From Escherichia phage vB_EcoM_DE15: 53,998 nucleotides of DNA. A program made the position numbers and the translations under genes. The DNA is taken from sequence record NC_079184.1; one strand, 5' to 3'. Shown here piece after piece: positions 1 through 14,601 of the stretch (positions are counted from its first letter, which is position 1; each line of letters opens with the position of its first letter). A model generated the notes under the pieces. It was not told the DNA's origin, ran no database searches, and saw only the letters and a list, made by a program, of their open reading frames with translations.

Positions 1-92
1 CGATTATATGCGAGAAGAGATTCGATGCGTTAGCGTCGTTTCTCTTTGAGCTAGAATAAGACAAGTAAATTAAATATTTATTTATTCCCAAT

Positions 93-390
93 ATTGCTAC
101 AATATTAAGAGTAATATTAGGAATGCGTAAAGTTAAAACCAAATGGTACATGGTCGGTCAACTGTATCTCCTTCGGAGAAGGTACTTGGACCAATCTTCG
201 TTCACGGTCGGTCAGCTGTATCTCGCCGAAATTTGTTCGAACAGAAGTCCGACTATGAAATAATTTTTTTATAATTTTTTTTTTATTTTTCAATATTGCT
301 ACAGAATTAATGAGACTAGAATTCGTAACAAAGCTACGAGACTCGAATTGTTTCAATATTAACGAGACTCAATCTGTGACAATATTATAA
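93..390. repeat. Repeat-rich non-coding leader: direct repeats GGTCGGTCA(A/G)CTGTATCTC at 152-170 and 206-224; three GAGACT(A/C)(G/A)AAT copies at 312, 338, 364 with 26-nt spacing; poly-A/T tract 250-290; palindromic CAATATTG octamers
   Basis: Read directly from sequence; no + strand ORF in 1-651. Confidence 0.6.
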
Positions 391-567
391 TTTTATTTTT
401 GGGACGGCGAGGAGGGGAAGCCCAACGTCCTATCGGACTTAAAATACGGTCCCTACCCCAACTTTTTCCTACAGCCTATCGGCTTTCAAACAACACCAAG
501 TTAGGCGCTTCGCTTATGGGTCAAGGTCAAAGTCTCCGTGCTGTTGTAACAATGGCACAGGTTTGTG

Positions 568-588
568 ATATTAGTTGGACGTGAATTG
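568..588 (+). promoter_or_regulatory. Phage promoter-like motif (ATTAGTTGG core) upstream of the RNA polymerase gene
   Basis: Copy of the recurring 20-nt motif ACATTAGTTGGAT(A/T)TGAA; here ATATTAGTTGGACGTGAATTG. Confidence 0.4.
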
Positions 589-651
589 TGTAATGGCTAC
601 GCTATTATAATCCGTTTCAGTTAAATCATACACAATCTTGGAGACTTACAA

Positions 652-2592
652 ATGACTACTATCACCACTCAAACTATCAAATCCGTTGTTCCTGCTATCA
701 CTGCTCTGGTATACCGTGCCAAAGAGAAACAGAACTATATGCAGCCTCAGACTTGTGCTATTGCTGCCTTAGCCATCTTCAAGATGATGACGTCTTTCAC
801 TCGTGATGACGTTGTCCCTGCCATCGCGATGGTTGAACTGGCTTCTGCTTCTATTGCTGATGCCAACCGTTATAACAACGATTTGAAAGCAATGCACTAT
901 GTTGACCCAGCTATCAACCTCATTGGTCTGGCTAAGCACTTTGGCTTCATCACCATGAACGAAGACAAGTCATTCCAACAGACTGACACATGGGTTGAAC
1001 TGGTTACAACCAAAGACACCGCAGTGCCATTCACTGAGCGTGTTACATCTGAATCTCGTCGCAAGCCTTTCGTTAAAGGTGGCAAAGTTAAGCCATCCAA
1101 AACTCTGAAAGCTGCAATCGAATTCCTGCAAGATACTGAGTACCATGTGGAGACTGAGATGGTTCGCATCATCCAGTCCATGCTTGAGCAACGTACTTAT
1201 GGTGGCTTGCAGATGCCAGAAGCAATCCAGACTGAACTTCATGTTTGGAACAATGCTGTAGCAATGATGAATCAGGACACACTGTATTCTGACTACTTTG
1301 CTGACAACCGTGGTCGCCTGTATCATGTAGCATGTGCTGGTCCTAACCCACAATCTTCTGACTTTGCTCGTTGCTTGTATTCTCACAATGTTGAGAACAT
1401 CGTTAAGAAGTTTAACGAAGATGGTTCTACTACCATTGCATACAATATGTTCATGGCAGAACTGGAAGACATTTCCGGTGGTGAATGGTGCACTGCCAAG
1501 CGTTTGACTTATGTTGCTCAGAATCCAGCTGGTTCACTTGCTCGCATGATGAACATGCCTAAAGCTGAACGTCCTTCCAAGCCATTCACTTATGTTCGTC
1601 TGGCTCTGGATTGGTTCAAGTTTGAGACTACAGGTGAATGCGATTCTCGTGTAGGCTTTGGCTTAGATGCTAAATGTTCTGGTACTCAATATCTGGCATT
1701 CATTGCTGGCAATATGGAAATGGCTCGTGCAACAGGTCTGGTTGATTCTGAGACTAAAGCATCTGACCCATACCAGTTGAGTCTTCGTGAACTGTTGAAG
1801 CTGTTGGACAAGTCTTCAATGAAACCATCTCCTGAAATCATGGATGAATTCTTGAATCCGAAAGCTGGTCGTAAGTTTATCAAAACTCCGTACATGGCTA
1901 TTCAATATGGTGGTGGTAAAGCTGCACTAACTGGTTCATCTGACTTCATCAGCTACATGACGGAAGCTCTCCAGATTCCTATGGAGAAAGCTGAGGCATT
2001 TGCTGAACTGTGTGTAGAAGCAATCCATAACGCATTGGGTGCTAAGATTAACATGTTCATTGAGAAAGCTGCTGAGGCTGCATACAACCGTTGTGTTGAA
2101 CTCAACAAAGAGTACATCACATATCGTCACACTGATGGTCAGGTTGTAATGAAGCCTTGCTTCCCATCTCGTGAAATCTGTGAGGCATTCAGCATTCGTG
2201 TTGACAGCCAAACTCGTGTTATCTTTGGTCAGATTCAGGAGAATAAGCCTTGGACCATTCGTGAATCCAACCCAACTAAAGAAGAATTCAAGCGTACTTT
2301 CGTTGTTAACTACATTCAAGGTATTGACGCATTGGTTGCTCGTACTGTTGCAGTTAAAGCTAAAGAAGCTGGTCTTCGTGGTTTCACTTCAATCCACGAT
2401 TGTTTCCGTTGCTGTTTGGCAGATGCTCCACGTATGATGGAAGTTATTCGTGCAGCATATGTTGAAATCTTTGTAACCAACAATCAATTCGAGAATCTGT
2501 CTAAGCAACTTGGTGGCATTCAGATGTATCATGAGAACATCGTAACTGAAGAACTCCTGATGTCTGAACACGCTTACTACTTCTGTCAATAA
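652..2592 (+). CDS. Single-subunit (T7-type) DNA-dependent RNA polymerase, compact 646-aa form
   Basis: Motif A GLDAKCSGTQY (T7 DGSCSGIQH), motif B RKFIKTPYMAIQYGG (T7 RxxxKxxxxxxYG), motif C IHDCF (T7 HDSFG); only ~130 aa precede the palm region. Confidence 0.8.
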   Translation: MTTITTQTIKSVVPAITALVYRAKEKQNYMQPQTCAIAALAIFKMMTSFTRDDVVPAIAMVELASASIADANRYNNDLKAMHYVDPAINLIGLAKHFGFITMNEDKSFQQTDTWVELVTTKDTAVPFTERVTSESRRKPFVKGGKVKPSKTLKAAIEFLQDTEYHVETEMVRIIQSMLEQRTYGGLQMPEAIQTELHVWNNAVAMMNQDTLYSDYFADNRGRLYHVACAGPNPQSSDFARCLYSHNVENIVKKFNEDGSTTIAYNMFMAELEDISGGEWCTAKRLTYVAQNPAGSLARMMNMPKAERPSKPFTYVRLALDWFKFETTGECDSRVGFGLDAKCSGTQYLAFIAGNMEMARATGLVDSETKASDPYQLSLRELLKLLDKSSMKPSPEIMDEFLNPKAGRKFIKTPYMAIQYGGGKAALTGSSDFISYMTEALQIPMEKAEAFAELCVEAIHNALGAKINMFIEKAAEAAYNRCVELNKEYITYRHTDGQVVMKPCFPSREICEAFSIRVDSQTRVIFGQIQENKPWTIRESNPTKEEFKRTFVVNYIQGIDALVARTVAVKAKEAGLRGFTSIHDCFRCCLADAPRMMEVIRAAYVEIFVTNNQFENLSKQLGGIQMYHENIVTEELLMSEHAYYFCQ

Positions 2593-2600
2593 GAGAAACA

Positions 2601-2630
2601 GGGCTGGCAATAGCTGGCCCTATTCTTGTT
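2601..2630 (+). terminator. Hairpin (8-bp stem incl. 2 GU, AATA loop) followed by T-rich run after the RNAP gene
   Basis: GGGCTGGC-AATA-GCTGGCCC then TATTCTTGTT. Confidence 0.4.
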
Positions 2631-2693
2631 CATCAACAACTAAATCCCAATATTCAAGCAATATTGCTGCATGTAATATTGCTCCGATATTCG

Positions 2694-2714
2694 ACATTAG
2701 TTGGATATGAAGTA
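2694..2714 (+). promoter_or_regulatory. Phage promoter-like motif ACATTAGTTGGATATGAAG
   Basis: Member of recurring 20-nt motif family. Confidence 0.4.
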
Positions 2715-3670
2715 AAAGAATACGGAGAAATATTCCGCATGTCATGTTGAATCATTCTAGAAACATTCAGCATGTCAGCTTTGAGTTACAGCGTTGTAAT
2801 GATGTGGCAATCATTGAACTCCCTGGGAAGGCCACCTATAGTTCCAGCAACCATGACTTAGAGTAGGAATATCTATCCGAAACTTGGACTTCATTGTAGT
2901 TTGGTGTGCTTCATCGTGAGAAAGGTTGTGATAACTTTCGTAAGCAGGTGTTGAACTAACAACAGAACATCGTGTTAGCCATCTTGATTAAGTTACAAGA
3001 AAGTCAACAAATCAGCATGTCTATTAGTAACAATCTTGTTCCTTCTCCTATTATCAAGGCCCACCCACAAGCCGGGAGATAACTTTGACAAGACTGGAAC
3101 TTTTGGACATGCTTCTTTCTTTCTACAAGAATTCGAAAGAAGAGAAGAGTCGGAGCAAAGCCGCGAAACTAATCCCGTAGCCCGCCCCCGATTTTGAGCA
3201 ACAAATATTGTGACAATTGCGTCGCAGTATGGCATGTAAATATTGCTACAAATTGGCATGTTGGAATGTGGCAGAATTGTTAGAGGACTAATCACCTCGA
3301 AGATACAATCGTCTACCAATCTGGCATGTTAATTTTGTAACAGTATTTGTGCCAATTTCGCATGTAATAGTTGTATCAGTATTGACCCAATATTCTTGCA
3401 ACCCGCATGAATACTGGCTTCCAGCCAAGCGAAGGCTTTATCATCGCATGTAATATTGTGACAATATTGGGATAAAACCCTTTATTTAAATCATTTAGTT
3501 TATTAATTAAATGGTCGGTTTTCTGTACATAGGTATTCAACTGTTTGTGCCAAATACAAACAAGTTGGCTGCTTCTACAGAACTCCAGTGCTACAAATGT
3601 TCGTGCCAATCTGCTGCAATTTATCTCATTTGGCGGGGTAATATTGTATTAGGTTGGTACGTCATTATTT

Positions 3671-3692
3671 CGATTAGTTGCATGTGAATAAG
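3671..3692 (+). promoter_or_regulatory. Phage promoter-like motif variant GATTAGTTGCATGTGAATAAG
   Basis: Member of recurring motif family, one core substitution. Confidence 0.3.
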
Positions 3693-3964
3693 ACCAAATC
3701 TCTGTAAATTCTGTGACAGATTTTAGAGAGATTATGTCTCCAAGCTAATCATTGTAGTTCTTCGGCACTTAATGTGTCACATATATAGCCTGTGAAAAAC
3801 GTGTGGTTTATTGCTGGATTGCAACGCGCCCACCAGACTAGGGAGTCCGTGATGGCGGCACACAGGAATACTATATAACTCCCTACAACTTTAAGGTGGA
3901 TTGAGGTAAGACAAGACCTCCACAATCGTTCTGTAGGGAGTTTTCTTTAACTTGGGAGAATAAA

Positions 3965-4213
3965 ATGGATACTGTGACTAAAGCTGCTTACTTTAAAGAC
4001 TTGTCAGATGGTCAAATATTTTCTATTCGCTCTGTAAAGTGGATTAAAGTAAATGAATCAGACAAGTACAATGCTGTAAAGTTCTTTGATTCAAGCAAGG
4101 CATGTACTTTTAGTGACAATATTGTTGTAAATATTGAAGTCGAATTAGAGCCAGATGATTCAAATGATGAAATCATTCTGCGTAAAACTGTTGGATACAC
4201 TAAAGGATTCTGA
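3965..4213 (+). CDS. Hypothetical early protein (82 aa)
   Basis: ORF with GGGAG RBS upstream of ATG. Confidence 0.5.
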   Translation: MDTVTKAAYFKDLSDGQIFSIRSVKWIKVNESDKYNAVKFFDSSKACTFSDNIVVNIEVELEPDDSNDEIILRKTVGYTKGF

Positions 4214-7826: not shown

Positions 7827-7848
7827 ACATTAGTTGAATGTGAATAAC
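7827..7848 (+). promoter_or_regulatory. Phage promoter-like motif ACATTAGTTGAATGTGAATAAC
   Basis: Motif family member 18 nt upstream of next gene. Confidence 0.45.
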
Positions 7849-8342: not shown

Positions 8343-8363
8343 CAATTAGTTGGATTTGAAGAG
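8343..8363 (+). promoter_or_regulatory. Phage promoter-like motif CAATTAGTTGGATTTGAAGAG
   Basis: Motif family member. Confidence 0.45.
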
Positions 8364-12343: not shown

Positions 12344-12364
12344 ACATTAGTGGGATTTGATTCT
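12344..12364 (+). promoter_or_regulatory. Phage promoter-like motif (first of three in tandem)
   Basis: ACATTAGTGGGATTTGATTC. Confidence 0.4.
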
Positions 12365-14580: not shown

Positions 14581-14601
14581 ACATTAGTTGGATGTGGAAA
14601 G
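14581..14601 (+). promoter_or_regulatory. Phage promoter-like motif ACATTAGTTGGATGTGGAAAG
   Basis: Motif family member. Confidence 0.45.

Follow-up and report, generated by a model that had tools for sequence, protein, structure and literature searches.

A repeat-bearing leader between nrdB and the RNA polymerase gene of Escherichia phage vB_EcoM_DE15: a candidate early control region next to a predicted packaging cut

The RNA polymerase gene of Escherichia phage vB_EcoM_DE15 is preceded by a non-coding leader which, between positions 93 and 390 of sequence record NC_079184.1, carries two direct repeats, an A/T-rich tract and a tandem array with a period of 26 nucleotides (nt); the window denotes the whole analysed stretch of 53,998 nt, from whose first letter all positions are counted. 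Segment 93-390 is a non-coding control region with nrdB, the last of the late genes, upstream and the T7-like RNA polymerase gene (652-2592, + strand) downstream. A previous sequence-only reading has proposed the segment as a genome terminus, a packaging signal or a regulatory region of the first gene; here, we describe its anatomy and conservation and argue tentatively for the regulatory function, next to a predicted packaging cut. The first 3 kilobases (kb) have been found to be 94-95% identical to those of Escherichia phages SA91KD and ST32 and ∼88% identical to those of phiEcoM-GJ1 (GJ1), with which the window is collinear. The window represents one genome of unit length from a Carltongylesvirus (Chaseviridae), opened by database convention. 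Its last base is the end of the nrdB stop codon and position 1 is the very next base, which also opens the GenBank records of GJ1 and SA91KD, while in the permuted records of flopper, MLP1 and TH29 nrdB runs without interruption into 'CGATTA.ATG.GAGAAGAG...'. Position 1, being internal in these records, is therefore not a DNA end, and the question raised earlier, whether the window starts at a terminus or at an arbitrary cut, is answered in favor of an arbitrary cut following the same convention as the GJ1 and SA91KD records. The spacer between nrdB and the polymerase gene is the only upstream non-coding DNA and is insulated by a terminator from late transcription. This terminator-like hairpin with its T-run follows nrdB at 23-48 (+ strand; stem 23-38 with 6 pairs, tail TTTCTCTTTG) and is invariant in the relatives; it probably closes the late operon, borders the control region upstream and isolates 93-390 from late transcription.

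The 26-nt array extends over 291-388 on the + strand, with units at 306-331, 332-357 and 358-383. The hexamer GAGACT starts at 312, 338 and 364, i.e., with spacings of exactly 26 and 26 nt, and as the whole window holds 13 GAGACT on the + strand, chance cannot account for three of them falling into exact register within 58 nt. The 26-nt period has been reported by Tandem Repeats Finder at 336-387 with a score of 74. The three copies of GAGACT(A/C)(G/A)AAT described before hold with respect to the spacing but not to the full 11-mer, which is restricted to the first two copies (2 matches vs. 0.11 expected), the third reading GAGACTCAATC. Extended -10-like positions recur in register at 297, 323, 349 and 375, and an additional fourth unit, absent from the earlier description, follows in register at 375-383. 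The longer string TTAAYGAGACT occurs in the window only at 307 and 359. The number of GAGACT copies has been observed to differ among the relatives: none in Y2, 4HA13 and two IMG/VR contigs, two in flopper, PYps23T, MLP1, TH53 and one IMG/VR contig, and three in this window, SA91KD and TH29 as well as, with irregular junctions, in GJ1, ST32 and JL1 (junction spacers of 47, 36, and 24 nt, respectively). The array is a variable-number tandem repeat, its units being joined head to tail in numbers that vary from one close relative to another. A recognizably homologous array is found in PM1, which carries CAATATTAACGGCTC three times vs. CAATATTAACGAGACTC here.

Upstream of the array, the 19-mer GGTCGGTCA(A/G)CTGTATCTC is present at 152-170 and 206-224 (both + strand), so that the two 19-nt repeats with starts 54 nt apart stand as described in the sequence-only reading; they are identical at 18 of 19 positions, can be extended to 25 nt at 88% identity (146-170 and 200-224), and have no further copy within 3 mismatches in the 54 kb (0.01 expected). 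Each repeat contains a core box, TCGGTCAACTGTA at 154-166 in the first copy, which is kept in every genus examined, and TCGGTCAGCTGTA at 208-220 in the second. This core, TCGGTCRACTGT, has been found conserved across genera, as TCGGTCGACTGT in Y2, as TCGGTCAACTGC in PM1 and in two copies in 4HA13, and its Myduc version, CAGTCGACTG, is a perfect 10-bp palindrome. The spacing of 54 nt, compared with 36 nt in other relatives, is due to an 18-nt insertion that forms a small hairpin (GTATCTCCTTCGGAGAAG, 164-181, + strand) and is found at this place only here and in SA91KD. In JL1, the same element is placed after the second box instead of the first, and this shift in location suggests a recurrent fold-back or templated insertion beside CTGTATCTC. 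Between the second repeat and the T-tract, a perfect 10-bp palindrome, TGTTCGAACA (234-243), is conserved in the alignment of the relatives. The A/T homopolymer tract that had been noticed before has been confirmed at 260-290 (+ strand); it consists of phased T-runs (T7-ATAA-T10-A-T5) with an 11-nt period of 2.8 copies according to Tandem Repeats Finder, includes TATAAT at 270-275, has a G+C fraction of 0.18-0.20, and resembles a tract in Y2. It could serve as an UP-element-like or bent-DNA segment.

Chaseviridae genomes are linear and bear long direct terminal repeats of ∼3 kb (ICTV profile). The left end of the terminal repeat has been taken from six relatives, based either on PhageTerm annotation or on the redundancy of the record ends. 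Redundancy has placed the end (marked by a slash) at ...CCTGTCG/GACTTAAT in Y2 (repeat of 2,608 bp), at ...CCCTATCG/GGAGATAAAT in PM1 (2,665 bp) and at ...CCTAT/CGGAC in JL1 (2,995 bp), and PhageTerm at ...CCTATCGGAC/TTAAAT in 4HA13 (3,120 bp), at ...CCCTAT/CGGGAG in Myduc (3,202 bp) and at /TTAAAATACGG in Mangalitsa (3,234 bp). Transferred to the window, these six left ends lie within 6 nt (CCTAT^CG^GAC^TT, 434-440), with GTCCTATCG/GAC corresponding to 435/436, and the real genome end can be placed from the relatives at this predicted cut, 45 nt beyond the end of 93-390. The cut lies in a palindrome, GTCC-TATC-GGAC (427-438), whose arms covary to CTCCC-TATC-GGGAG in PM1 and Myduc. For the direct terminal repeat, the right end (GAAAGAAGAGAAG/AGTC/GGAGC) is predicted at 3147-3152, again mapped from the relatives, which would yield a repeat of ∼2.7 kb (436 to ∼3150) with the whole polymerase gene inside. 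A family-wide conserved block, TCCTATTAT(C/A)AAGGCCCACCCACAAGCCGGGA, is found at 3044-3075, ∼70-100 nt upstream of the predicted right cut, and a second CCTATCGG is located 46 nt downstream of the cut-site palindrome. We consider the elements at 427-438, 475-482, 3044-3075 and 3135-3152 as candidate terminase recognition elements of both ends.

A different assignment has been published for Yersinia phage PYps23T (MW147598), with a terminal repeat of 2,339 bp whose boundaries correspond to window 579/580 and 2705/2706. Both boundaries are located inside a recurring 16-mer, ATTAGTTGGA/YGTGAA, precisely where the two copies first diverge, and in the six other phages of the subfamily the left end is found ∼145 nt upstream of the PYps23T boundary, at CCTATCG/GAC. 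Boundaries of this type (window 580 and 2706, within the phage-promoter motif) have been set aside as ends, because the six phages agree on 434-440 and because the junction coincides with the first differing base of the 16-mer copies. They might reflect a template switch in ligation-PCR, site-specific nicks or a real difference, and are treated here as doubtful.

Even with the PYps23T boundaries included, no mapped end is found within 93-390, which is unique DNA located 45-345 nt upstream of the left terminal-repeat edge and which, in the virion, would directly precede the right-hand copy of the repeat. The proposal that 93-390 is itself a genome terminus has accordingly been abandoned, as the ends of the six relatives correspond to 434-440 and to ∼3147-3152. 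The sequence-only reading had named, as grounds for giving up its proposals, termini that map elsewhere and a dispensable region. The first of these holds, and some relatives do without the array, but the core box is kept throughout the family. With the exception of MLP1, where an insertion follows downstream, the 3' end of the array keeps a distance of 70-74 nt to the cut throughout; the boxes are found here 216-284 nt upstream of 435/436, and their distance is highly variable among the relatives (-132 to -287). The cut itself is preceded by a rigid module (386-435, + strand) that consists of a TATAAT-like hexamer, a T-run of 11-12 nt and a G+C-rich segment of 34-36 nt, the hexamer keeping a constant 51-54 nt to the cut throughout the genera examined. 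In MLP1, a 46-nt partial duplication of the TGTGAC/T-run/G+C-rich segment has been observed between array and cut (∼-46 to -100), which suggests that tandem duplications readily arise across the whole segment.

In T7-group phages, the polymerase gene needs initial transcription by the host polymerase, typically from tandem promoters. Based on the sequence features above, our preferred reading, to which we hold only tentatively, is that the array consists of tandemly duplicated promoter modules for the host RNA polymerase that, together with operator-like boxes, drive the phage RNA polymerase gene. The 26-nt GAGACT units would represent a duplicated sigma-70 promoter module behind a curved A/T tract, in which the -35-like TTRAYG of one unit would pair at 17-18 nt with the TATTRW of the next; in an alternative register, the contribution of each unit would be an extended -10-like TGnNNCAAT whose predicted start falls on GAGACT. 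The final unit (359-388) would fire into the RNA polymerase gene, and the two TCGGTCRACTGT boxes along with the AATATT hexamers could be the DNA sites of a dimeric regulator of early transcription. With the promoter region placed outside the terminal repeat, virion DNA would join it to a single copy of the polymerase gene, the one at the right end. Anatomy, phage identity, conservation, copy-number variation and, in relatives, the location with respect to the repeat edge are shown here; promoter activity, a regulator and this right-end linkage are inferred.

The regulatory function suggested earlier for the segment remains plausible in this form and is preferred, with the homology of the last unit to a GJ1 annotation in its favor and weak sequence evidence for the promoter itself on the other side. 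The sigma-70-like promoter TTAACG-18-TATTAT at 359-388 (+ strand), which makes up the last array unit and has a predicted start near A395, is homologous to the 'putative host sigma70 promoter' of GJ1 (EF460875, 364-393, TTGACG-18-TATTAT), the only sigma-70 promoter that the GJ1 annotators have predicted. Hexamers and spacing are kept in Carltongylesvirus as well as in PM1 (TTAACG-17-TATAAA) and Myduc (TTAAGT-18-TATATA), with divergent spacer sequence. On the + strand, the first 4 kb are enriched in TGn-extended -10-like elements (17 vs. 8.4 ± 2.8 expected; 8 on the - strand), which cluster in non-coding parts and, within 93-390, are found at 95, 256 and 375. The A/T tract directly precedes the array. 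The variable GAGACT number combined with a 3' end anchored at the cut supports an origin of the array by tandem duplication, and the conservation of the boxes across genera at variable distance from the cut, along with their palindromic form in Myduc, supports their role as sites at the DNA level. A scan of 1-700 for sites of DnaA, IHF, CRP and LexA and for T7 class-II pause sites has remained negative.

Several observations weigh against this promoter array. The TTAACG-18-TATTAT element matches the consensus at 9 of 12 positions and scores 7.7 bits, a value reached by 83% of shuffled leaders (the GJ1 orthologue reaches 11.7 bits, matched by 5% of shuffles), the best sigma-70 weight-matrix score in the window is 8.1 bits vs. 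a shuffle mean of 9.1, and a generic sigma-70 scan has found 8 sites vs. 6.7 expected. The two promoter registers fit about equally, as A/T-rich repeats tend to do, and in the middle unit (332-357) neither putative hexamer survives although GAGACTCGAATTG is kept, so that the most conserved part of the unit is not formed by promoter hexamers. Y2, 4HA13 and two metagenomic relatives have no array, although they all need to express the polymerase gene; in Y2, 4HA13 and the IMG/VR relatives no matching -35 is found, the -10-like hexamer alone being kept. This hexamer holds a constant distance from the cut and not from the gene, which fits packaging at least equally well. A Pfam search with ten early proteins has given no hits and no DNA-binding domain. 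In the searched literature, neither transcript mapping nor a transcriptome study of Chaseviridae phages has been found, the papers on ST32, 4HA13 and Tiny mention no promoters in the nrdB-polymerase region, and the ICTV profile describes Chaseviridae promoters as not yet identified.

An alternative that we regard as possible, though doubtful, is that the small terminase subunit binds and bends DNA at accessory sites formed by the GAGACT array, the TCGGTCRACTGT boxes and the A/T tract, which would direct the cut 45 nt downstream in a manner similar to the lambda cosB R-sites or T3/T7 pacB. Repeated sites and a bendable A/T tract beside a cut are the known architecture of cosB, and repeats within a few hundred bp of the cut, as expected of a terminase site, are indeed present, the array being located 47-145 nt and the boxes 216-284 nt upstream. 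The packaging signal proposed in the sequence-only reading gains from an array that ends ∼45-60 nt from the family-conserved cut GTCCTATCG/GAC and loses from the dispensability of this array and from the better conserved blocks at the cuts. The TATAAT/T-run/G+C-rich block keeps its rigid 51-54 nt to the cut in all genera, despite insertions that separate the cut from the gene, and the boxes are kept across genera with a common terminase. Conversely, the array is gone in Y2, 4HA13 and IMG/VR relatives that retain the cut-site module, the distances of the boxes from the cut are very variable, the right boundary is free of GAGACT or box copies, and the stronger family-wide blocks directly at both cut sites could suffice. 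To our knowledge, nothing is known about the small terminase subunit of Chaseviridae, which we also count against a packaging role.

Both functions may be combined in one device, for which we see a rather low probability: boxes, A/T tract and promoter-like array would form the recognition region of the terminase that makes the long direct terminal repeats, the cut inside the palindrome GTCCTATCG/GAC would fall ∼40 nt into the transcript of the last unit, and host transcription and initiation of packaging would thus meet at one site. If this proves true, the right-end copy of the RNA polymerase gene alone would retain the host promoter in the virion, and for Chaseviridae an early promoter and a packaging signal would be defined for the first time.

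It is unlikely, in our estimate, that the array has no selected function and merely represents a slippage-prone, A/T-rich tandem duplication in a tolerant spacer, with the boxes and the cut module as the functional parts. Such neutral slippage would be consistent with copy numbers and spacers that vary between phages of ∼90-95% identity, with the duplicated neighboring segment of MLP1, with the decay of units (332-357 has lost its ATATTAAC part) and with the several relatives devoid of the array. It is contradicted by the exact 26-nt register, by the fixed distance of the array's 3' end from the cut and by the unit core CAATATTAACG-G-CTC, which is common to Carltongylesvirus and Pectobacterium phage PM1, although their polymerases are only 70.6% identical.

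A replication origin, with the 26-nt units as initiator iterons beside an A/T-rich unwinding element, appears very unlikely. The direct repeats do adjoin a tract of 18-20% G+C, and the cumulative GC skew has its minimum in the first 1-2 kb (with its maximum near 50 kb), but the skew, which is slightly negative in the region of the polymerase gene (652-2592) and mostly positive in the remaining genome, is confounded by the orientation of the genes on one strand. No DnaA box (TTWTNCACA) or IHF site has been found in 1-700, the flanks are formed by nrdB and the RNA polymerase gene instead of an initiator gene, several relatives lack the array, and the replisome genes are T7-like. T7 origins consist of phage promoters followed by A/T-rich DNA, an element order opposite to that of 93-390.

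Highly improbable is a transcribed product, either a small structured RNA (from ∼110 to the T-run at 264-290) or a small open reading frame (ORF) at 123-263. Its attraction lies in a U-run ∼160 nt after the extended -10-like TGcTACAAT (95-103), in a consensus fold of nine relatives in which each box pairs with a downstream CCGA (-26 kcal/mol, pairs preserved via G-U changes), and in the annotation of an ORF at this place in flopper and PYps23T. The folds of the leader alignment, however, contain no compensatory double changes, the sole covarying palindrome being the cut site; the single-sequence folding z-score reaches only -1.84 for 120-295 (+0.30 for 395-500), the complementary partner is absent in Y2 and 4HA13 despite a kept box, and an Rfam scan of 1-4000 has yielded only two hits, both at chance level and outside 1-660. 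An RNA structure of the leader is not supported by these z-scores, the missing compensatory changes and the Rfam result. The small ORF has been rejected as its frame is not conserved: a 1-nt indel after codon 4 leads to two frames among close relatives, the length is 17 codons in JL1 and 40-66 otherwise, and a properly spaced ribosome-binding site is lacking. That the repeats mark a physical terminus with the window start as a true end is almost certainly wrong: the start base, for all its agreement with the linear GJ1 and SA91KD GenBank records, follows the nrdB stop and is internal in permuted records, and the ends of the relatives are located at 434-440 (580 in PYps23T) and ∼3150 (2706 in PYps23T), none of them in 1-390.

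Further motifs surround the array and the boxes. The upstream part of the segment is taken up by an AATATT module (89-118, + strand), in which three hexamers are placed 11-12 nt apart (CAATATTGCTACAATATTAAGAGTAATATT); AATATT-N5-AATATT is conserved in the leaders of Y2, PM1 and 4HA13. The module contains the best extended -10-like element, the TGcTACAAT at 95-103, and the first copy, ATTGCTACAATATTAA, of a 16-mer family, ATTG(C/T)T(A/T)CA(A/G)(T/A)ATTAA, which recurs at 93, 295 and 347 and was not part of the earlier description. Genome-wide, AATATT has been observed 45 times vs. 19 expected, with 20 of these copies in the first 4.1 kb, and motifs of this type are concentrated within 1-4130, especially at 2649-2729 and 3204-3468. 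GCATGT(A)AATATTG is present in ∼7 copies (2660-3460) and, along with GTGACAATATT (exact at 375, 3458 and 4112), fills the largely ORF-free spacer 3' of the polymerase gene. Downstream of the cut, the second CCTATCGG (475-482) is followed by GGTCAAGGTCAA (519), by a phage-promoter-like 16-mer, ATTAGTTGGACGTGAA (570-585, + strand), and by a ribosome-binding site. This 16-mer is one of six close copies of ATTAGTTGGAYGTGAA (at most 1 mismatch, 0.04 expected), all on the + strand, at 570-585, 2696-2711, 3673-3688, 7829-7844, 8345-8360 and 14583-14598; weaker matches start at 12346, 12487, 12624, 14251 and 43081. In the GJ1 annotation, ATTAGTTGGAYGTGAA is termed 'putative phage promoter'; the 570 copy is missing from the nine promoters annotated there; it has conserved counterparts before the polymerase gene of Y2 and PM1. 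The GAGACT unit shows no such genome-wide recurrence before gene blocks as would be expected of a promoter for the phage T7-like RNA polymerase, ATTAGTTGGAYGTGAA being the motif that recurs on the + strand. The unit AATTAATGAGACTAGAAT, which faintly resembles T3-type promoters, has been rejected as a general phage promoter because it is confined to the leader. A further property of the genome is its extreme avoidance of Dam/MboI-type sites, with a single GATC in 53,998 nt vs. ∼200 expected from length alone.

The main value of these results is corrective, in that the start of the window is arbitrary and the repeats belong to a control region before the RNA polymerase gene. We regard this region as a phage early control region next to the packaging cut, with an anatomy of a copy-number-variable promoter-like array, an operator-like box and a rigid A/T and G+C module that ends in a palindromic cut. 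Current ideas on phages with terminal repeats are not overturned. As phages of this family are under development as biocontrol agents against pathogenic E. coli, Erwinia and Pectobacterium, correctly placed genome ends and early control elements are of importance for their annotation and engineering.

Among the known systems, iteron origins (plasmid or lambda-type ori) likewise combine tandem direct repeats with an adjacent A/T-rich segment, but the period here is 26 nt instead of ∼20-22 nt, DnaA and IHF sites as well as an adjacent initiator gene are missing, and T7-like replisomes use promoter-primed origins, unlike the iteron type. Recognition repeats of the terminase are known from lambda cosB (R1-R3, accompanied by a bending site) and from the concatemer junction of T3/T7 (pacB); the leader shares with them short repeats and an A/T-rich bendable tract within ∼50-350 bp of a sequence-specific terminase cut, and as at the T7 junction the elements of 93-390 lie in unique DNA flanking the terminal repeat. 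It differs from cosB and pacB by the lack of sequence similarity and of a known binding protein, and by an array that is dispensable in relatives with the cut-site module. The T7 promoters A1-A3 upstream of gene 1 are near-consensus, ∼125 bp apart and located inside the left end after a terminal repeat of 160 bp. Our candidates resemble them as stacked host promoters of the same direction near a genome end and before a single-subunit RNA polymerase gene; unlike A1-A3, they are weak, are not part of the ∼2.7-kb terminal repeat, in which the polymerase gene itself is found, and would be mutually exclusive, since they are only 26 bp apart. The sigma-70 promoter of GJ1, whose genome was formerly thought to be circularly permuted, is orthologous DNA and shares with 359-388 the position upstream of the RNA polymerase gene, the -35 here being weaker (7.7 vs. 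11.7 bits). Its annotation is a prediction that makes no mention of tandem repeats, boxes or a nearby terminal-repeat edge. As the closest known counterpart is this annotation, the general nature of the region was already guessed in 2008; new within the searched literature are the tandem, copy-number-variable array, the family-wide box and their adjacency to a conserved palindromic cut site.

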